Origin: an uncultured Candidatus Rokubacteria bacterium
GTDB lineage: Bacteria; Methylomirabilota; Methylomirabilia; Rokubacteriales; CSP1-6
Direction of reading: 5' to 3'
Length of the DNA: 64,000 nucleotides
Assembly: GCA_963789955.1 (NCBI GenBank)
Contig: CAWBMV010000037.1
Span: 96,001-160,000, forward strand
The translations under genes and the position numbers were made by a program. Of this stretch, positions 4,223 through 13,901 are shown one piece after another; positions within the stretch are counted from its first letter, which is position 1; every line of letters starts with the position of its first letter. Under the pieces are notes generated by a model, which saw only the letters and a program-made list of their open reading frames with translations, ran no database searches and was not told where the DNA came from.

Positions 4223-4785
4223 GAGATCTCCTTTCGTATCGGAAATGCCGGGACCGTTTGCCAATCGAGCTGAAAGATCCGTTCGACCGTGCGGCCGACC
4301 GCGAGGGCGAACGCTTCGAGGTCGAGCCCGTCGAGCGTTTGCCCGCGAAGCCGCCGCCGGCCCTCGTCGAGCAGCGCCCGGGCGCCGGCGAAGTTGCCGT
4401 TGGCGAGATGCTGGTAGCCGACCGCGATCTGGATCAGGCCCTGCAGCGCCTCGCGCTCGCCACCTGCGGCATCGCGCCAGGCGGGCTCGAGGAGCTCGTG
4501 CACCTCGAAGTAGAGATGCGCGTCGAACAGCGCCGCGGCCGCCTCGAGAACGTCCGCGCGCGAGCGCATTCGCTCGCTCGCCCGGGCGGCGAGCGCGGCG
4601 TCCGCGCTCAACGCCCGCTGCCGGATCAGCGGTCGGCAGTCGAGATCGCCGGGCTCCAGCCAGTCGGGCGGCGCCTCGGTCTCTGCGAGGGCGGCGAGCT
4701 CACGGCGTGCCTCGGGCTGCTCCAGCGCGGCCAGAATGATCTCGGCGAGACGGTTTCGGACCCGTAGTGGCGCGGTCGGGATCAC
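4219..4785 (-). CDS. DUF309 domain protein
   Basis: YFEVHELLEPAW...LQGLIQIAVGYQH signature. Confidence 0.8.
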   Translation of the reverse strand: MIPTAPLRVRNRLAEIILAALEQPEARRELAALAETEAPPDWLEPGDLDCRPLIRQRALSADAALAARASERMRSRADVLEAAAALFDAHLYFEVHELLEPAWRDAAGGEREALQGLIQIAVGYQHLANGNFAGARALLDEGRRRLRGQTLDGLDLEAFALAVGRTVERIFQLDWQTVPAFPIRKEIS

Positions 4786-5264
4786 ACGATGCCCGCGACG
4801 GCCCCGGGCGTTTCGACCGGCACCGGCGCGGCGGCCTCGGGCTCCGGCAAGTGCTCGACCCGCGTCCCGGCGATCAGGTCGTGCAGCGCGCGCTTGTCGT
4901 GCCGAAGCCCGGCCATCACGAAGCCCAGGGTGAGCGTCGCGACCGAGGCGAAGTACGCCCCGAACCGAAGGAGCGCGGCGCCGAACGGCGGGGGCCCTTC
5001 CTCGCCGGCCACGACCCTGACCCCGACGAGCATCTTGCCGATCGTCTGCCCCGCGAGGCTGTGCAGCACGGTCGTGTAGGCTCCGGCGAAGACCAGGGTG
5101 AAGACGGCCACCAGGGGCTTGAGCGTCGCGGCGCTATCGACGTCGCCGCCCAGCATGCGACGGCCGATGAGCCCCAGCGAGAACTGCACGAAGGCGAACA
5201 CGACGAAGTCGAGGCCGGCGGCGAGCGCGCGAATCCAGAAGCCGGCGGGGCGAGGCTCAATCAT
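4782..5264 (-). CDS. RDD family membrane protein
   Basis: AGFWIRALAAGLD, GQTIGKM, KRALHDLIAGTRV. Confidence 0.88.
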   Translation of the reverse strand: MIEPRPAGFWIRALAAGLDFVVFAFVQFSLGLIGRRMLGGDVDSAATLKPLVAVFTLVFAGAYTTVLHSLAGQTIGKMLVGVRVVAGEEGPPPFGAALLRFGAYFASVATLTLGFVMAGLRHDKRALHDLIAGTRVEHLPEPEAAAPVPVETPGAVAGIV

Positions 5265-5282
5265 GCCGCGTATAATATCGCC

Positions 5283-6479
5283 ATGATTTCGGTGCAGGAC
5301 GGCCAAAATCAGATCCTTCGCCAGCTCGCCGAACCGACACCGCCCGAGGTCGTCGCGGTGACCCGCGCGCGCGATCGCGTGCTCGCCGAGGATCTGCCCG
5401 CGCCGTTCGACGTGCCGCCGGCGGACAACTCGGCCGTCGACGGCTACGCCGTGGCGAGCGACGACGTGCCGGCCGCGAACACGCGCGAGCTCGCCGTGAT
5501 CGCCGAGCTGGCGGCCGGCACCGTGTTCGCCGGCACCGTCGCGTCGGGCCAGACCGTGCGCATCATGACCGGCGCGCCGATGCCGCGCGGCGCCGACACC
5601 GTGTACCCGCAAGAGGTGGTCGAGCGGCGCGGCGATCGCCTGAAGGTCGGCTCGATTTCCAAGGGCGCCAACGTCAGGAAGCGCGGCGAGGACGTCCAGG
5701 CGGGCACGATCGCGATCGAGCGCGGCACCGTTCTGCGCCCGCAGGAGCTCGGGCTCATCACCTCGCTCGGCCAGTGGCAGGTGCTCGTGCACCGCCGCCC
5801 GCGCGTGGCCCTTCTCTCGACCGGCGACGAGGTCGTCGAGCCCGGCACGCCGCGCAAGCCCGGCCAGATCTACGACGCCAATCGCTTCACGTTGCGCGGC
5901 TCGGTCGAGCAGTGCGGCGGCGAGGTCATCGATCTCGGCATCGTGGCCGACGCGCGCGACGAGCTTCGGACGCGGCTGCTCGAGGCGGCGGAGATCGGCG
6001 ACATCGTCGTGACATCGGGCGGCGTGTCGGTCGGCGCGCACGACCTGGTGAAGGACGTGCTCGGCGAGATCGGCGCGATCGACTTCTGGCAGGTGGCGAT
6101 GCAGCCCGGACGCCCGCTGGCCTTCGGGCGCATCGGATCGGCGCACTTCTTCGGGCTGCCCGGCAACCCGGTCGCCTCGATGCTGGCGTTCATGCTCTTC
6201 GTCCGGCCGGCGATCTACAAGCTGGCCGGCCGGCGCCGCCTGTTCCCCGAGATGGCCGAGGCGACGGCCGTCGAGACCATGAGCAAGAAGAAGGGCCGCC
6301 GCGAGTTCAAGCGCGGCGTCGTCCACTGGAAGAACGGCCGCTGGGAGGCGCGGACGACGGGACCGCAGGGTTCCGGTATCCTCTCCTCGATGGCGGCGGG
6401 CAATTGCCTCATCGTGCTCGAAGAAGAGCGAGGCGACGTGGCGGTCGGTGAGACCGTTCTCGTCGAGCCGTTCGCATGA
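5283..6479 (+). CDS. moeA: Molybdopterin molybdotransferase
   Basis: DNSAVDGYA, RIMTGAPMP, STGDE, TSGGVSVG, GLPGNP. Confidence 0.95.
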   Translation: MISVQDGQNQILRQLAEPTPPEVVAVTRARDRVLAEDLPAPFDVPPADNSAVDGYAVASDDVPAANTRELAVIAELAAGTVFAGTVASGQTVRIMTGAPMPRGADTVYPQEVVERRGDRLKVGSISKGANVRKRGEDVQAGTIAIERGTVLRPQELGLITSLGQWQVLVHRRPRVALLSTGDEVVEPGTPRKPGQIYDANRFTLRGSVEQCGGEVIDLGIVADARDELRTRLLEAAEIGDIVVTSGGVSVGAHDLVKDVLGEIGAIDFWQVAMQPGRPLAFGRIGSAHFFGLPGNPVASMLAFMLFVRPAIYKLAGRRRLFPEMAEATAVETMSKKKGRREFKRGVVHWKNGRWEARTTGPQGSGILSSMAAGNCLIVLEEERGDVAVGETVLVEPFA

Positions 6480-8041
6480 CCAACAAGGTCTCCGTCGACC
6501 TCATCGACACCGTCACGCCGATGGTCGAGACTCGCGTACGCGAGGCCGCGCGCCGACTGCCCCACCTGCGCTATGCCGACATCCGGCTCGAGGTCACCGA
6601 GGCCAAGGGCGCCGGGTCGGAGAACGGCACGCCCAAGTTCTCCGGCGACGACTACGGCTTCTCGCTCGGCGCGCGCGTCCTCGCCGGCGACCGGATGATC
6701 GCGCCGGGCTACGTCGGGCAGACGCTCGGCACCGCCGATCTGGCCGACCTCGACCGGATCGTGCGCGAAGCGCTCGAGCGGGCCTATCGGCGCGCGATGG
6801 TGAACGGCGAGATGAAGGCCGACGCGCGCGAGAAGTACGGGGCCCTCGGCGAGTCGCTCGCCGACACGCGCCTGCACCCGGTCGAGGTGCGCCAGGACAA
6901 GGTCGCGGCCGTCTACCGGGTCGATCCGCGCACGATGTCGCTCACCGAGATGGTGCGCTACGCGACCGACGTCTCCCGCCAGGTCGCGGCCGTCGACACG
7001 GGGGTCAAGTACAACTACGTCGGGACGGTGACCGAGCTCTCGCGCGAGCTCTTCGTGTCGAGCGAGGGCGCGCGGATCGATCAGTCGTTCGCGCTGACCA
7101 TGGGCACCTGCACGGTCGTCACCGTCGACGGCGAGGTGAGCCAGGATCTGTACGACGCGCTCGGGCACCAGCGCGGCTGGGAGATCTTGCTCGACGGCGT
7201 CGACGAGGCGGCGCTGCGCTTTCCGAGCTTCCTCGATTTCGCGCTGAGCCTGGCGCGCGAGGGCGTGGCGCTCGCGGCCGCCCCGGTGCTGCCGACCTCG
7301 GACGGCGACGTGGTCGTGGTCACCGATCCGCACTACAACACGCTCGTGTCCCACGAGATCATCGGCCATCCCGTCGAGCTCGACCGCGCGCTCAAGATGG
7401 AGACGGCGTACGCCGGGCGCTCCTGGCTGCTCGGCGGGCTCACCGAGCATCAGGTCGGCCGCCGGGTCGCCTCGCCGCTCGTGACCGCGTACTCGGATCC
7501 GGCGCTGCCGGGCTTCGGCCACTACAAGTACGATCACGAGGGCACGCCGGCGCGCCGCGTCGTCCACATCGACCGCGGCATCTTCCGTGGCTTCATGAAC
7601 AGCCGGCAGACCGCGGCGATCTTCGGCGGGGAGCCCAACGGCCACTGGAAGGCGACCGACGCCTCGCTGGTGCCGCTGATCCGGATGTCCAACACCGTGT
7701 TCGACGCGGGCGCGCGGCCGGCGGACGACATCGTGAAGGAAGTCGACCACGGCTACTACGTGGCCGGACACCGCACGCCGTCGATCGCCGAGAGCCGCGA
7801 GAACTTCCGCATCTCCGCGCGCGGCGTCTACGAGATCCGCAACGGCGAGCTCGGGCGGCTCTACCGCGACGGCGGCATCGCCGCCGACTCGCGCGACTAC
7901 CTCATGAACGTCGACGCGGTCGGCACCGACTTCCGGCTCTACCCGATCCCCAACTGCGGCAAGGGCCAGCCGATGCAGACCAAGAAGCTCGGCAACGGCG
8001 GCCCGACGATGCGCACGCGCGCGCGGGTGATCGGCGGCTAG
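6476..8041 (+). CDS. TldD-family metalloprotease subunit (divergent)
   Basis: HEIIGH Zn motif, RMSNT, C-terminal CGKGQP. Confidence 0.88.
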   Translation: MTNKVSVDLIDTVTPMVETRVREAARRLPHLRYADIRLEVTEAKGAGSENGTPKFSGDDYGFSLGARVLAGDRMIAPGYVGQTLGTADLADLDRIVREALERAYRRAMVNGEMKADAREKYGALGESLADTRLHPVEVRQDKVAAVYRVDPRTMSLTEMVRYATDVSRQVAAVDTGVKYNYVGTVTELSRELFVSSEGARIDQSFALTMGTCTVVTVDGEVSQDLYDALGHQRGWEILLDGVDEAALRFPSFLDFALSLAREGVALAAAPVLPTSDGDVVVVTDPHYNTLVSHEIIGHPVELDRALKMETAYAGRSWLLGGLTEHQVGRRVASPLVTAYSDPALPGFGHYKYDHEGTPARRVVHIDRGIFRGFMNSRQTAAIFGGEPNGHWKATDASLVPLIRMSNTVFDAGARPADDIVKEVDHGYYVAGHRTPSIAESRENFRISARGVYEIRNGELGRLYRDGGIAADSRDYLMNVDAVGTDFRLYPIPNCGKGQPMQTKKLGNGGPTMRTRARVIGG

Positions 8042-8464
8042 ATGCGCGGCGCGCTGACCGTCGTCGGGGCCGTCGGCCTGCTGTTCGCCACCGCCGCGCC
8101 CGCGGCGCCCCCCGAATATCCCGTCAACTTCATCAAGGTCGACGAGCTCAAGAGCTTCCTCGACCGCGGCACCAAGGCGGACATCATCGACGTCCGGCAC
8201 TGGGAGCAGTTCGTCGAGAGCCACATCAAGGGCGCCCGCTCGATGCCGCTCCGTGTCGTCAACGACCGCGCCCCCGAGATCTCCAAGACAGGGCTGGTAG
8301 TCTTTTACTGAACGTGCCCGCACGCGCTGTCCCGGGGGGCCAGCGACATTCTGTACTAGCTCGGATGGCGGAATCATCGCGTGCTCGAGGAAGGGCTTCC
8401 CGGATGGATGGACAAGGGCTACCCCGTCGAGGGACGGAACCCGACGGCGCCGCCCGGGCACTGA
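8042..8464 (+). CDS. Exported rhodanese-domain protein, probable selenoprotein (UGA 8309-8311; additional in-frame TAG 8357-8359)
   Basis: Signal peptide; IIDVR, SHIKGA, VVFY-TGA-TCPH; the same frame continues to LEEGLPGW..GYPVEG and stops at 8462-8464. Confidence 0.75.
8312..8348 (+). promoter_or_regulatory. Putative bacterial SECIS element
   Basis: CGCTG(8325-8329)/CAGCG(8341-8345) plus CCC/GGG stem with a G-rich apical loop about 23 nt 3' of the UGA. Confidence 0.55.
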
Positions 8465-8471
8465 GCACACG

Positions 8472-10031
8472 ATGAGGACGGTCGACGAGCTGGCACGGGC
8501 AAGCGAGGAAGCGCTGGCGCTGGTCGCGCGCCAGACGGATGTCCGCGAGGCCGAGGTGTTCGTCGCCGCGAACTCCGCGGTGCTGACCCGGCTCAACTAC
8601 ACGTCCCACATTCCCTGCAACGGCGTCGAGGAGCCCAAATCGACCGAGTCCTACGGCCTGGGCATCCAGGCGGTCTTCGAGACGCCGGAGGGCCCGAGGA
8701 TCGGATTCGGCAGCGAGCCGAGCGACCTTTCGCTCGCGGGGGCCGAGCGCGCGCTGGTCAAGGCGCGCCGGGCGGCGGTCGCCGATCCCGAGTTCGTCTC
8801 GCTCCCCGCGCCGACGGGCGCCTCGCGCACACTCGCCGACTACCACGACCCGCGGCTGATGGCGCTCGACGACGCGGGCCTGGTCGAGGCCGGCTGGAAG
8901 GTCACCGGCGGCGCGCTCCGGACGTTCAGCGCCTCGAGCCGGCTGGCCGATCTCGCCCAGGACGACGAGGGGCTCCGGCAGCTCGGCCTCATCCTCGGCG
9001 GCGACGTGACCATCCTGAGAGAGCGGATGGCGATCGCCTCGACCACGATGCCGCGCGCCCAGACCGACGAGACGTCGCTGATCACCGCGTTCGCGACGGC
9101 CATGGTCGAGACGCGCGGCGCCAAGGGCTCGGGGGCGTCGACGGGAACGCGGCTCGATCACTTCACCGACGAGGCCGGCGTGGAGGCGGCGCAGAACGCG
9201 ATCAACGCGATCGGCGGCGAGCGCGTGCCCTCGGGCGCCTACACGGTCGTCTTCGGTCGCCAGCCCGTGGCCGACTTGCTGAACAACATCGTGATCCCCG
9301 CCTGCCACGCGAGCTCGTTCTACTCCTCGAGCACGCCGTTCCTCGGCAAGCTCGGCCGCGCCGTGGCCTCGACGCGCTTGAGCCTCTACGACGACGGCGC
9401 GCGCCCCGGGTTCATGGGCTCGAAGGGCATCACGTGCGAAGGGCTGCCGACCGGACGGACCGATCTGATCAAGAACGGGATGTTCGTCGGGTGCCTCTCG
9501 AACTGGTACGAGACGCAGCGGCTGCTGCGCGATCCGGCCCTCGCCGAGAAGCTCGGCACCAGCGGGCCCGCCGCGGAAGCGGCGCTCGTGCCGCGCAACG
9601 GCTTTCGGTTCGGCTCCGGCGGCGGCCGCCAGTTCGACAGCGCGCCCGGCGTGGCCGCGTCGAACGTCGTGCTCGAGGGCGGCGAGGCGATCGGCATCGA
9701 CGAGCTGATCCGACGGGTCGGCGACGGTCTCTACATCGGCCGCATCTGGTACACGTACCCGATCAACGGCCTGCGCGCGGGTGATTTCACCTGTACCGTC
9801 GTCGCCGATTCCTATATCATCCGCGACGGACGCATCGCGGCGCCGCTCAAGGCCAACGCGATCCGGATCAACGACAACATCGCCACGTTCCTCAACAACG
9901 TCGTCGGGATCACCAAGGATGTGAAGGGCACGATCGTCTGGGCCGCGGACGAGGTCGTGTACGCGCCCGAGGTGGCCGTCACCGGCGTTCATGTCGACGA
10001 AATCGCGGGATTCATGGAGGACCTCGACTGA
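8472..10031 (+). CDS. TldE/PmbA-family protein (divergent)
   Basis: PmbA-like features (FLGKLG..VAS, EGLPT, SNVVLEGG, GDF); lacks HExxGH. Confidence 0.85.
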   Translation: MRTVDELARASEEALALVARQTDVREAEVFVAANSAVLTRLNYTSHIPCNGVEEPKSTESYGLGIQAVFETPEGPRIGFGSEPSDLSLAGAERALVKARRAAVADPEFVSLPAPTGASRTLADYHDPRLMALDDAGLVEAGWKVTGGALRTFSASSRLADLAQDDEGLRQLGLILGGDVTILRERMAIASTTMPRAQTDETSLITAFATAMVETRGAKGSGASTGTRLDHFTDEAGVEAAQNAINAIGGERVPSGAYTVVFGRQPVADLLNNIVIPACHASSFYSSSTPFLGKLGRAVASTRLSLYDDGARPGFMGSKGITCEGLPTGRTDLIKNGMFVGCLSNWYETQRLLRDPALAEKLGTSGPAAEAALVPRNGFRFGSGGGRQFDSAPGVAASNVVLEGGEAIGIDELIRRVGDGLYIGRIWYTYPINGLRAGDFTCTVVADSYIIRDGRIAAPLKANAIRINDNIATFLNNVVGITKDVKGTIVWAADEVVYAPEVAVTGVHVDEIAGFMEDLD

Positions 10032-10945
10032 TGGGTGAAGTACGTCTCGAGTCGATCGCGCGCGAGTGTCGTGTTCAGATTCTCCGCATGCTCGCTCACG
10101 CGGGCTCCGGGCATCCCGGCGGCTCGCTGTCGGTGATCGACATCCTCACGACCTTGTACTTCGGGCGGCTCCGGTTCGACCCCAAGCGTCCGGACTGGCC
10201 GGATCGCGACCGCGTCGTGCTCTCGAAGGGCCATGCGGTCCCCGCGCTCTACGCCGTGCTCTCGAGAGCCGGCTACTTCCCGGAGAAGCAGCTCATCACC
10301 TTGCGCAAGCTCGGCTCGCCGCTCCAGGGCCATCCCGATCGCACGGCGCTGCCCGGCATCGAGGCGGCCACCGGCTCGCTCGGCGAGGGGCTGTCGATCT
10401 CGCTCGGGATGGCGCTCGGCCTCAAGCTCGCCGGCTCGAAGGCGCGGGTCTACTGCATCCTCGGCGACGGCGAGACCCAGGAGGGTCAGATCTGGGAAGC
10501 CGCGATGTCGGCGCCGAAGCTCGGGCAGCCCGACCACGCGCTCGACAATCTCGTGGTCATCCTCGACTACAACAAGATCCAGCTCGACAACTTCGTGAAG
10601 AAGGTGCTCGACATCGAGCCGGTCACCGCCAAGTGGCAGTCGTTCGGCTGGCCCGTCATCGAGATCGACGGCCACGACCTCGCGCAGATCACGAAGGCGC
10701 TCGACCAGGCGGAAGCGACCCCCGGCGGGCCCACCTTCATCGTGGCGCACACGGTCAAGGGCAAGGGCGTGTCGTTCATGGAGAACGACCCGGAGTGGCA
10801 CGGCAAGGCGCCGAAGCCGGCGGAGGCGATCAAGGCCATTCGCGAGGTCCTCGGCGTCACCGAAGGCGCCTGGGAGGACTACTTGAAGACCGATTCGGCG
10901 ACCCGCGCGATCGTGGACGAGCTCGCCGCCCTGGAGAAGAAGTGA
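10031..10945 (+). CDS. Transketolase N-terminal (TPP-binding) subunit
   Basis: SGHPGGSLS, LSKGHA, LQGHP, GDGETQEG, TVKGKG. Confidence 0.93.
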   Translation: MGEVRLESIARECRVQILRMLAHAGSGHPGGSLSVIDILTTLYFGRLRFDPKRPDWPDRDRVVLSKGHAVPALYAVLSRAGYFPEKQLITLRKLGSPLQGHPDRTALPGIEAATGSLGEGLSISLGMALGLKLAGSKARVYCILGDGETQEGQIWEAAMSAPKLGQPDHALDNLVVILDYNKIQLDNFVKKVLDIEPVTAKWQSFGWPVIEIDGHDLAQITKALDQAEATPGGPTFIVAHTVKGKGVSFMENDPEWHGKAPKPAEAIKAIREVLGVTEGAWEDYLKTDSATRAIVDELAALEKK

Positions 10946-11871
10946 TGCCGGCCAAGGCCAGTCGCGCCGCGTTCGGAGAAGCGCTCCTCGATCTGGGCGC
11001 CAAGGACGAGCGGATCGTCACGCTCGACGCCGACCTGTCGAAATCGACCATGACCGTGAACTTCGCGAAGAAGTATCCGGCTCGGGCGTTCAACCTGGGT
11101 ATCGCGGAGTCGAACATGATCGGCGTGGGCGCCGGGCTGGCGCTCACCGGCCGCATCCCCTTCGCCTGCTCGTTCGCCTGCTTCATCGTGGGCCGCTTCG
11201 AGACGATCCGGATCTCCGTCGCCTACACGAACGCGAATCTGAAGATCGTCGGGACCCATTCGGGCATCGCGATCGGCGAGGACGGCTACAGCCAGATGGG
11301 CATCGAGGACATCGCCTGCATCCGCTCGCTCCCGAACATCGGGATCATCCAGCCCGCGGACGAGCTCGAGACCAAGCAGGCCATCGCCTTCGCCGTCGAG
11401 CACCAGGGGCCGCTCTACCTGAGGCTCACGCGGCAGAACCTCGAGCCCGTGTGTCCGCCCGACTATCGCTTCCAGTACGGCCGCTGGCTCGTGCTCCGCA
11501 AAGGTCACGACGTGACGTTGATCGGCACGGGCGGGCCCCTGTTCAACTGTCTCGAGGCGGCCAAGAGCCTGCAGGCCGACGGCATCTCGGCCGAGGTCAT
11601 CAACGCCGCGTGCATCAAGCCGCTGGACGAAGAGCTGCTGATCCAGTCGGCGGGCAAGACCGGCCACGTCGTGACCGTGGAAGACCACACGGTCGCCGGC
11701 GGGCTCGGCGGGGCGGTCGCCGAGCTGCTCGGCGACGTGCTGCCGACGCCGATGAAGCGGCTGGGCGTTCACGGATTCGGCGAATCGGGCGATCTGAAGG
11801 GCCTCTACGCCAAGCACGGCCTCGATCCGGCCGGGATCGCCGCGAGCGTGAAGAAGTTCCTCAACCGCTGA
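10945..11871 (+). CDS. Transketolase C-terminal subunit
   Basis: DADLSKST, GIAESNM, GEDGYSQ, VTVEDH; TGATG overlap with the N subunit. Confidence 0.93.
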   Translation: MPAKASRAAFGEALLDLGAKDERIVTLDADLSKSTMTVNFAKKYPARAFNLGIAESNMIGVGAGLALTGRIPFACSFACFIVGRFETIRISVAYTNANLKIVGTHSGIAIGEDGYSQMGIEDIACIRSLPNIGIIQPADELETKQAIAFAVEHQGPLYLRLTRQNLEPVCPPDYRFQYGRWLVLRKGHDVTLIGTGGPLFNCLEAAKSLQADGISAEVINAACIKPLDEELLIQSAGKTGHVVTVEDHTVAGGLGGAVAELLGDVLPTPMKRLGVHGFGESGDLKGLYAKHGLDPAGIAASVKKFLNR

Positions 11872-11899
11872 GGCACGGCGCGCCGCGTCGGGGCTCGGG

Positions 11900-12495
11900 T
11901 CGTGGAGCGACAGCGCTCCCGACCCTACCGGACTATCTCCGGCCGGGACTCGACCTCGTCTTCGTCGGGATCAATCCCGGACTCTACTCGGCTCGTCAGG
12001 GCCACTACTTCGCGCGCTCGACGAATCGCTTCTGGCCGGCATTCACGTCATCGAGGCTGAGCGAGCGCGTATCCGCGACGGGCCTCGGTACCGACGTCCT
12101 CAGACCCGAGCACGACGCGAGCGCTGCTGGCCTTCGGCATCGGCTTCACCGACGTCGTCAAGCGCGACGTCGAGCAACGCGGCGGAGCTCGAGCGCGAGC
12201 GACTTCGAGAAGTGGGCGCCGCGTCTTCTGAGCAAGCTCAGGCGCTTGGCGCCGCGCGTGGCCTGCTTCCACGGCCTCACCGCCTACCGACCGTTCCTCG
12301 CGCGTGGCACTCGGCGATCGACGACCGAGCGCCGGCGCTCGGTCCTCAGCCAGAGGTCGTCGGGACGACGCGGCTCTTCGTGGTGCCGAACCCGAGCCCG
12401 GCCAACGCCCACTTCACGCTTGGCCGACCAGGCCGCCTGGTATGACCGCCTGGCCGAATTCCTCGACGCGCGGGAGAAGCCAGCCGGCCGGCTAG
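11900..12495 (+). CDS. mug: Mismatch-specific uracil/thymine-DNA glycosylase (MUG/TDG family), frameshifted; start uncertain
   Basis: [37 protein letters not shown] spread across frames. Confidence 0.8.
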
Positions 12496-13886
12496 GGCCG
12501 GACCATGTCGGCCGCGCCGCACCCAGCGGTCGTACTGCTCGGCGGTCACGTAGCCGGAGGCGACCGCCGCATCACGGAGCGTGAGCCCTCCGGCGTGCGC
12601 CTTCTTGGCGATCTCCGCCGCGCGGTCGTAGCCGATATGCGGGGCGAGCGCGGTCACGAGCATGAGCGACCGGTCGACGAGCTCCGCGATCCTGGTCCGG
12701 TTCGCCTCGATCCCCTCCACACAGAACTCGCGGAAGCGCGCGCAGGCGTCGGTCAGCAAATCCACCGAGTGCAGGAAGTTGAAGATGATGACCGGCTTGA
12801 AGACGTTCAGCTCGAAGTTGCCCTGCGAGCCGGCGACGGCGATCGCCGTGTCGTTGCCCATCACCTGGACGGCAACCATCGTCACTGCCTCGGCCTGAGT
12901 CGGGTTGACCTTGCCCGGCATGATCGACGAGCCGGGCTCGTTCTCGGGCAGCGAGAGCTCGCCGAGCCCGCTGCGCGGCCCGGAGCCGAGCCAGCGGAGG
13001 TCGTTCGCGATCTTCATGAGCGCGCCGGCCGAGCGTGCGAAGGGCACCGCTCGCCATGACCAGATCGTCGTGGGCGGCGAGCGCGGCGAACTTGTTGGCG
13101 GCCGAGGTGAACGGCAAGCCCGTCAGCTCGGCGAGCTTCGCCGCGACGGCTTCGCCGAACCCGGCCGGCGCGTTGAGGCCGGTGCCGACCGCGGTGCCGC
13201 CGATCGCCAGCGCCAGGAGCCCGGGCAGGATCGCGTCGATCCGCGCGAGGCCGGCGTCGAGCTGGGCGACGTAGCCCGAGAACTCCTGACCGAGCGTGAG
13301 CGGCACCGCGTCTTGCAGATGCGTGCGGCCGATCTTCACGACGTCGTCGAACTCGCGCGCCTTGGCCGCGAGCGCGTCGCGCAGCGCGCGGACGCTCGGC
13401 ACGAGCCGGCGTGTCAGGTCGAGCGCGGCCGCGACGTGCATGGCCGTGGGGAACGTGTCGTTGGACGACTGCGACATGTTCACGTGGTCGTTCGGATGGA
13501 TCGGATCCTTGCTGCCGAGCCGGCCGCCCGCGAGCTCGATCGCCCGATTCGCGATCACCTCGTTCACGTTCATGTTGGTCTGGGTGCCGGAGCCGGTTTG
13601 CCAGACGGACAGCGGGAAGTGGTCGTCGAGCGTGGCCGGCGATCACCTCGTCCGCGGCGCGCACGATCAGCTCGGCGCGGCGGCTGTCGAGAAGACCGAG
13701 CTTCTGGTTGACCAGTGCGGCGGCCTTCTTCAGGAGACCGAGGGCGCGAACGACCGCGATCGGCATCCGGTCGTGGCCGATCGCGAAGTGGTGCAGCGAG
13801 CGCTCGGTCTGAGCGCCCCAGTAGCGGTCGGCGCGGACGTCGATCCGCCCCATGCTGTCGCTCTCGACGCGGGTCTGCGAAGTCAT
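12492..13886 (-). CDS. fumC: Class II fumarate hydratase (frameshifted into several pieces)
   Basis: [45 protein letters not shown]. Confidence 0.92.
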
Positions 13887-13901
13887 GCCTGACCTACCGG
13901 A

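Follow-up and report, generated by a model that had tools for sequence, protein, structure and literature searches.

Features of the locus and the read-through product

A stretch of 64,000 nucleotides from an uncultured Candidatus Rokubacteria bacterium (assembly GCA_963789955.1, contig CAWBMV010000037.1, positions 96,001 to 160,000 of the forward strand), referred to here as the window, carries a small rhodanese gene at positions 8042-8464 that contains an in-frame TGA at codon 90. The gene very probably encodes an exported single-domain rhodanese of a conserved selenoprotein subfamily, characterized by the active loop Y-U-x-C-P-[H/R], in which UGA-90 is read as selenocysteine (Sec, U). An ATG-started open reading frame (ORF) at 8042-8311 on the forward strand gives a product of 89 amino acids (aa), ending at TGA 8309-8311 after ...KTGLVVFY. 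Past this TGA, the same frame reads TCPHALSRGASDILY, a TAG stop codon and LGWRNHRVLEEGLPGWMDKGYPVEGRNPTAPPGH as far as TGA 8462-8464, and the ATG of the next gene lies at 8472, just 3' of this terminal TGA. The read-through product is written as MRGALTVVGAVGLLFATAAPAAPPEYPV...GLVVFY-U-TCPHALSRGASDILY, the TAG, and then LGWRNHRVLEEGLPGWMDKGYPVEGRNPTAPPGH, with 140 codons before the terminal TGA. The features of the gene are as follows.

8042-8464, + strand: coding sequence of the Sec-rhodanese, 140 codons plus terminal TGA, with UGA at codon 90 and TAG at codon 106 (PF00581 and orthologue alignments)
8042-8107, + strand: signal-peptide-like N-terminus MRGALTVVGAVGLLFATAAPAA, with Arg2, a hydrophobic core at about residues 3-19 and then A-A-P-A-A-P-P
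8309-8311, + strand: UGA codon 90 at the catalytic-Cys position, probably read as Sec (TGA in orthologues, alignment to 6mxv)
8315-8317, + strand: TGC codon 92, the invariant Cys of U-x-C, followed by the invariant Pro93 and His94 (alignment A2)
8325-8345, + strand: hairpin of the selenocysteine insertion sequence (SECIS) type, CGCUG/CAGCG, U.C mismatch, CCC/GGG, with the apical loop GGG at 8334-8336
8357-8359, + strand: in-frame TAG codon 106, present in this assembly only (the nearest relatives have TCG)
8462-8464, + strand: terminal TGA of the rhodanese gene, kept after ...P-[GA]-H in close orthologues

The Pfam Rhodanese profile (PF00581) matches the read-through product with 48.8 bits (cut-off 22.2) over residues 33-124, corresponding to profile positions 2-101 of 102. 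Because the profile is covered nearly end to end, the part after the TGA completes the rhodanese domain. An AlphaFold model of the read-through product, built with 31 aligned sequences, reached a predicted local distance difference test (pLDDT) score of 87.4 and is laid out as strand 85-89, loop 90-94 (U-T-C-P-H), helix 95-104, strand 112-115 and helix 118-124. Its top Foldseek matches are single-domain rhodaneses (3nhv, 3fnj and YgaP 5hbo), with a probability of 1.00. In the model, U90 directly follows strand 85-89 as the first position of the rhodanese active-site loop, and in the alignment to rhodanese 6mxv the query 'vfyc' falls on 'FYC', so codon 90 occupies the canonical catalytic-Cys position. 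Alignment A2, which comprises the 31 sequences, is invariant at C92, P93, H94, G108, R110, N111, E117, G118, G121 and W122.

An initial annotation of the locus, made from the sequence alone, had described an 89-aa ORF stopping after VVFY, a continuing frame that completes a rhodanese fold and fills the gap to the next gene, and a residue after the VVFY strand that corresponds to the rhodanese catalytic Cys, all of which agree with the coordinates, the domain match and the 6mxv alignment given above. Its description of a 140-aa rhodanese stands for the frame and the domain but not for the copy as assembled, which has the TAG at codon 106; this stop had been printed as an asterisk and passed over.

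Conservation of the in-frame UGA

The read-through protein was searched in 60 related genomes, the own genome being counted and G025 left out, and a match of 88 bits or more was taken as strong. This search returned 42 strong matches, comprising 39 with exactly one in-frame TGA, two with none, and the own genome with TGA and TAG. Strong matches were found in 15 of 16 genomes of the same genus, 11 of 19 other genomes in the family and 14 of 24 from the rest of the order; the sole same-genus genome without one, G011, is 66% complete.

The codon-90 column holds TGA in 38 of the 40 related-genome loci and TGC in the other two. In the loci of genus and family, TGA follows VV[F]Y in all 20, while the more distant loci have TGA in 18 of 20 (...VVLY-U-ACPHHL...) and TGC in L043 and L044 (...VVVY-C-ACPHHL...). 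Metagenome contigs retrieved by a pattern scan carry TGA in 29 of 29 stretches, with L080 counted after allowing for its single-base indels. A scan of named genomes gave 247 confirmed relatives, and the counts of Sec and Cys forms and of their hairpins cover the best 80 of these 247. Among these 80 loci, 55 have TGA at the column and belong to Rokuibacteriota/Methylomirabilota, Binatia, 'Deltaproteobacteria' and Thermodesulfobacteriota, and 25 have TGC or TGT and belong to two Methylomirabilota, Dadabacteria, Kofleriaceae and other Myxococcota including Labilithrix luteola, Desulfobacterales, WOR-3 and Eisenbacteria. Cys likewise stands at the Sec column (YCTCPH) of P0013, a database protein of 140 aa with 59% identity. 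Such alternation of Sec and Cys is typical of selenoprotein families. At the TGA itself, contigs from four sequencing runs of relatives show no other letters at 8309-8311. The initial annotation had proposed that the UGA encodes Sec, expecting Cys or TGA at codon 90 of homologues and no TGC or TGT in reads, and this is in keeping with the aligned column and, as far as relatives go, with the contigs of the four runs.

Two of these sequences have peculiarities of their own. L080, a 431,693-base metagenome contig that is 97% identical, shows six single-base gaps over 768 aligned bases, two of which fall in the rhodanese gene. The contig has the look of a noisy assembly from long reads, so its frameshifts are not to be taken as biology. 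P0002 (140 aa, 72% identical), which comes from a single contig of 836 bases, carries Arg in place of Sec (YRTCPN), one base from TGA; either Sec has truly been lost or this lone short contig contains an error.

The codons after the TGA are under purifying selection of the coding type, with variable sites at codon positions 1, 2 and 3 numbering 15, 12 and 42 over 50 codons in 20 orthologues. This bears on the plainest alternative, that TGA 8309-8311 is a true stop, leaving an 89-aa truncated rhodanese fragment followed by 150 nt of non-coding or remnant sequence. Public gene calls agree with such a stop, since 118 of the best 120 relatives in the database are 89-aa products ending at TGA-90, under names such as 'rhodanese-like domain-containing protein [Methylomirabilota bacterium]' or 'SseA', and TGA is the usual stop here, ending nine of 13 neighbouring genes. 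However, a product of 89 aa would be missing a third of the fold together with the catalytic residue, the protein sequence of the downstream frame is conserved and shows the codon-position bias just given, the residues C92, P93, H94, G108, R110, N111 and W122 after the TGA are invariant, the Cys homologues run straight through the column, and the genome holds a full Sec machinery. A true stop is thus very improbable.

That machinery, on whose presence the initial annotation had made its proposal depend, is represented in the own genome by all four components (selA, selB, selD and tRNA-Sec). The tRNA-Sec was found at 69.8 bits (gathering score 47), and ARAGORN reports it as tRNA-SeC with the anticodon tca. 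The selA gene (500.1 bits) and a SelB wing domain (65.9 bits) both adjoin the tRNA-Sec on contig C1, while selD lies on contig C6 with 304.3 bits against a cut-off of 125; all four are above curated cut-offs. Genome-wide reassignment of TGA to a standard amino acid, for which only the open frame speaks, can scarcely be credited, as TGA ends the rhodanese gene itself (8462-8464) and eight neighbouring genes, the in-frame TGA is restricted to one Cys-aligned column, and a dedicated tRNA-Sec is present with selA and selB. Reading of UGA-90 as Sec may be regarded as established for the family as far as sequence analysis reaches.

The selD match (G000:C6:164505-165326, locus L088) begins only at profile position 42 of 311, with the N-terminal part unaligned. 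The N-terminal part of other SelD proteins holds a Cys/Sec residue, and the selD gene of this genome may itself have an in-frame UGA upstream.

A SECIS-type hairpin downstream of the UGA

The RNA at 8325-8345 folds as CGCUG-U-CCC[GGG]GGG-C-CAGCG with a minimum free energy (MFE) of -10.7 kcal/mol. The hairpin lies 16-36 nt downstream of the UGA, and its apical loop at 8334-8336 starts 22 nt after it. The initial annotation had noticed the same CGCTG/CAGCG and CCC/GGG arms with a G-rich loop, and had taken them to serve the UGA. According to section 5 of the review by Zhang et al. 2026 (PMC13188914), the bacterial SECIS (bSECIS) model has a loop of 3-9 nt, an upper stem of 4-16 bp, a spacing of 16-37 nt from the UGA, an MFE of -7.5 kcal/mol or lower, and G in the first two loop positions, mostly then G or U. 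With its GGG loop, spacing of 22 nt and MFE of -10.7 kcal/mol, the hairpin agrees with this published model if a mismatch in the stem is tolerated.

Comparison among relatives is more telling than the single fold. Among 38 Sec sequences there is no variation in the core pairs 21-33, 23-31 and 24-30, and loop position 26 is always G, while the loop-closing pair 25-29 is C-G in 26 and A-U in 11. Hairpin cells can pair in 77.5% of cases in these sequences; shifting the partner by 1-3 columns lowers this share to 29.5-52.6%. All 55 Sec forms retain 4-5 of the five core pairs, their loop always fits G[G/U]N, and the mean MFE is -10.4 kcal/mol. Among the 25 Cys forms, none has all five core pairs, two carry a loop of the G[G/U]N type, and the mean MFE is -2.7 kcal/mol. 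Two Cys forms that are nested among the Sec forms show a change of the loop from GUU to GCC. The upper stem is continuous in 20 of the 55 Sec forms, unlike in this genome. Third-position variation is also low over the hairpin codons 96-102 (2/7) as compared with the codons beyond (35/38).

Several observations weigh against so favourable a view of the hairpin. The upper stem consists of 3 bp, a U.C mismatch and then 5 bp, so that the range of 4-16 bp is reached only with the mismatch tolerated. The z-score of the hairpin is -1.48, with 18 of 200 shuffles folding equally well, and the 48 nt from the UGA give a z-score of +0.36. The RNAalifold consensus comprises only four pairs at -1.9 kcal/mol and was used solely to describe the conserved core. 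Covariation at pair 25-29 counts as one event, because the two-sided change is confined to one clade. The contrast between Sec and Cys forms is confounded by phylogeny, close kin of the Sec forms making up 2 of the 25 Cys forms. The folding energy was dropped as evidence for a SECIS element, being within chance against shuffles in GC-rich sequence, and the significance of the hairpin is drawn from the comparative data instead. By these data, the hairpin is strongly supported as a putative SECIS element that goes with the Sec forms rather than with the Cys forms.

An extra stop codon at codon 106

As assembled, the gene has a premature TAG at 8357-8359, which would end the product after 105 residues even with Sec at codon 90. 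This counts against the present gene being an active member of the subfamily, as the copy may make no functional protein. At codon 106, 19 other orthologues have K (7), Q (4), S (4), R (2), T (1) and G (1), and the 29 metagenome contigs have TCG (15), AAG (9), ACG (2) and CAG, AGG and CGG (1 each), with TAG in none of either set. TCG is the codon in both of the closest relatives, L077 (98% identical over 765 nt) and L080 (97%), so the TAG corresponds to one C>A change at 8358. Four sequencing runs from four studies agree with these relatives, with C at 8358 in X1, X4 and the RNA library X15, and C at 8357 in X2 (codon TCG or CAG). The contigs of these runs represent relatives at about 95-99% identity, and even the best run covers no more than 0.62 of the sampled words, which means that the source sample is not among the runs compared.

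The odds are about even between a consensus error or rare variant and a very recent real nonsense allele. On the first view, the TAG arose as an error of assembly or consensus building or represents a minority variant, and the gene of the organism is intact with TCG (Ser) at codon 106, which has roughly one chance in two. A single C>A difference from L077 and L080 suffices for it, the residue at position 106 varies freely elsewhere (S, K, Q, T, R or G), and signs of uncorrected errors occur elsewhere in the window. These signs come from fumC, a class II fumarase gene at 12346-13901 on the reverse strand, in which two single-base shifts, near 13630 and 13060, break the reading into three frames; as the genome's only FumaraseC_C match it has an open frame of 258 aa, compared with 435-725 aa in six relatives of the same genus. 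The split suggests uncorrected consensus errors, or else a pseudogene; fumC alone was examined by hand for broken genes in the window. On the other hand, the stretch 7900-8600 is not visibly error-ridden, showing no indels against the contigs of the four runs, and the defects of fumC are indels and not substitutions.

On the second view, to which we give only slightly less weight, the TAG is a real nonsense mutation and the copy a freshly inactivated Sec-rhodanese pseudogene that yields at most an unfoldable fragment of 105 residues. The assembly as given has the TAG, and TAG is an ordinary stop here, ending 4 of 13 neighbouring genes including the one immediately upstream. The genome has no PylS (best match 28.7 bits against a cut-off of 178), and a product that ends at the TAG would be without strand 112-115 and helix 118-124 of the model. 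Against a real mutation stand the lack of further decay, the residues after the TAG being identical to those of L077, the occurrence of TAG in 0 of 19 other genomes, 0 of 29 contigs and 0 of 4 runs, and the frameshifted fumC, open in the six same-genus relatives, which points to consensus errors. Pyrrolysine at the TAG was ruled out, as no PylS was found in the genome and the codon is unconserved. Whichever of the two holds, the copy in this window needs checking at the level of reads before it is counted as a functional selenoprotein.

Genomic context and proposed function

The genes adjoining the putative Sec-rhodanese are the following.

4767-6479, + strand: MoeA-type molybdopterin molybdenumtransferase gene, the first gene of a conserved same-strand block
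6476-8041, + strand: upstream TldD/PmbA-family peptidase gene, whose TAG stop abuts the rhodanese ATG
8472-10031, + strand: second, downstream TldD/PmbA-family peptidase gene
10031-10945 and 10945-11871, same strand as the rhodanese gene: split transketolase

MoeA, TldD/PmbA, rhodanese, TldD/PmbA and the split transketolase thus stand on one strand, with stops and starts that touch or overlap. Close orthologues retain this arrangement, with both TldD-family neighbours present in 38 of 44 loci (L093-L136), some of the remainder being cut by contig ends, while the MoeA/TldD gene order is absent from 36 more distant loci (L137-L172). The MoeA product has about 170 extra N-terminal residues ahead of MoeA_N, which starts at residue 174, and these gave no Pfam match at the threshold used. 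A promoter and terminator scan of 4500-12400 found none, which is uninformative for such an organism. A metatranscriptome contig (X15 record 8, 1104 nt) that spans 7900-8600 in one piece was set aside as proof of transcription or of an operon, as carry-over of DNA is possible.

Four of the distant loci L137-L172 were annotated. A VKOR-family gene lies directly upstream of a Sec-rhodanese with the loop Y-U-Q-C-P-R in one Binatia chromosome (L144:2081-3435) and one Thermodesulfobacteriota chromosome (L148:1550-3351). CtaG/Cox11 occurs near the Sec-rhodanese in both of these loci, and SCO1 in one, so that VKOR, CtaG/Cox11/SCO1 and the Sec-rhodanese may form a periplasmic redox module. In Labilithrix luteola DSM 27648 (L172:2170-3396), the Cys form YCACPHH makes up the C-terminal domain of a protein of 409 aa that has a c-type cytochrome domain in its middle part; this is a cultured organism in which the function of the family could be tested. 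The fourth locus, from Rokubacteria at the level of the order, gave no functional clue.

The VKOR, SCO1, CtaG and cytochrome c contexts are those of extracytoplasmic redox and metal-handling functions, which fits the signal-peptide-like N-terminus. Over residues 3-19 the hydropathy rises to as much as 2.46, an N-terminus of this kind is present in all aligned orthologues (A2), and the model shows a low-confidence helix at 5-16. For the signal peptide named in the initial annotation, Arg2, the hydrophobic core 3-19 and the AAPAAPP region are all present, and export itself we infer from these features.

In the proposed mechanism, the ribosome would read UGA-90 as Sec, and the hairpin, with its 3-nt loop G-[G/U]-N and a conserved GGCC-type core, would recruit SelB with Sec-tRNA(Sec) by analogy with the E. 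coli paradigm. The N-terminal signal peptide would take the protein across the inner membrane, where Sec90 might act as the nucleophile at the catalytic-Cys position and Cys92 might resolve the adduct by closing a selenenylsulfide with Sec90. The adjoining VKOR, SCO1 and CtaG genes in Binatia/Desulfobacterota, together with the cytochrome c fusion in Myxococcota, suggest the role of a redox partner. The protein would then most likely be a redox-cycling periplasmic sulfur (sulfane/persulfide) transferase or reductase, not a plain Cys-persulfide carrier. Two points detract from this assignment: the neighbours in the own lineage (MoeA, the two TldD/PmbA genes and transketolase) give no functional clue, and we infer the selenenylsulfide redox role from the motif and the context of four distant loci.

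Comparison with known rhodanese selenoproteins

Rhodanese selenoproteins as a kind are already known. In the Sargasso Sea survey (PMC1088965), the Global Ocean Sampling (GOS) survey (PMC2398784) and a 2022 review (PMC9312934), rhodanese-related sulfurtransferases appear among the selenoprotein families. Five forms are tabulated in PMC13188914, namely UxxS, UxxG, CxU (NF041203), UxxG and TsoB (UxxxxU), and a U-x-U form is described in the Olavius symbiont paper (PMC1976440). The supplement sequences of the deep-Sep paper (PMC12013277) include rhodanese forms with ...FYCGGPTU..., ...VYURSGxRS... and the CxU form ...VLYCAUPSEATS.... PMC13188914 cites Deng et al. 2026 for a Methylomirabilota metagenome-assembled genome with 63 predicted selenoproteins. 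The novelty implied when the initial annotation called the protein hidden is thus overstated, since five rhodanese selenoprotein forms are already catalogued, including the mirror-image exported C-x-U, and U-x-C represents a new variant at most. None of the motifs YUTCPH, YUACPH and YUQCPR occurs in the deep-Sep supplements of PMC12013277 that were searched, no NCBIfam model reaches its cut-off with the query, and a limited literature search, which leaves a prior listing possible, found no paper tying selenoproteins of Rokubacteria or Methylomirabilota to a rhodanese. A fuller claim, that Y-U-x-C-P-[H/R] is a sixth, uncatalogued exported rhodanese selenoprotein form with catalytic Sec, a resolving Cys at +2 and an intramolecular selenenylsulfide, acting as a periplasmic redox partner and not as a classical sulfurtransferase, and widespread in soil Methylomirabilota where nearly every public annotation cuts it to 89 aa, is tentative and, taken as a whole, rather doubtful.

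The nearest known relative is NF041203, rhodanese_LYCAU, of the C-x-U type. Judged by the sequences in the supplement of PMC12013277, both are single rhodanese domains of about 130 aa with a signal-peptide-like start, and both place Sec and Cys two residues apart at the start of the loop, followed by Pro, with ...L-Y-C-A-U-P... in NF041203 and ...F-Y-U-T-C-P... in the present form. Sec and Cys are swapped between them: here Sec is at the catalytic position and Cys at +2, and the L-Y-C-A-U motif is not matched. The NF041203 profile scores 47.5 bits with the query over profile positions 17-125 of 126, and since this is below the cut-off of 115, the present protein is related to NF041203 but not a member of that equivalog. 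The examples of NF041203 in that supplement are Desulfobacterota, while the present form occurs in Methylomirabilota, Binatia and some Desulfobacterota.

The COG0607 form 1 and COG2897 selenoproteins (U-x-x-G, ...VYURSGxRS...) likewise have Sec in place of the catalytic Cys right after the ...V-Y strand, according to PMC12013277 and PMC13188914. They differ in having a loop of the classical C-R-x-G-x-R-S type without the Cys at +2, where the present form has U-T-C-P-H-A, and the examples shown there are without a signal peptide, several having a long C-terminal extension.

The single-domain rhodanese fold is shared with the E. coli PspE/GlpE type, but PspE/GlpE use Cys and have another loop with no second Cys, and the PspE models NF007627 (25.8 bits) and TIGR02981 (21.5 bits) score far under their cut-offs of 102 and 126 bits. 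E. coli PspE is periplasmic. With the bacterial SECIS model, of which E. coli fdh is the paradigm, the present gene shares a hairpin within the coding sequence just after the UGA and a 3-nt loop that starts with G; binding of SelB is here a prediction. The Cys-form homologues Y-C-A-C-P-H-H of Myxococcota, WOR-3, Eisenbacteria and Desulfobacterales share the loop architecture at 33-46% identity and have neither the UGA nor a SECIS-type hairpin at the matching place, and they are the counterparts expected of a genuine selenoprotein family.

The value of the finding lies mainly in annotation and in a natural series of chalcogen pairs. With a dedicated profile, hundreds of gene calls from abundant soil phyla would be corrected, because the public calls stop at 89 aa and the query reaches the cut-off of no NCBIfam model. 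On one fold, pairs at positions i and i+2 now run from U-x-C in the present form through C-x-U (NF041203) and U-x-U, the last as reported in PMC1976440, to the C-x-C of the Cys homologues, and this natural series lets one ask why selenium takes either position.

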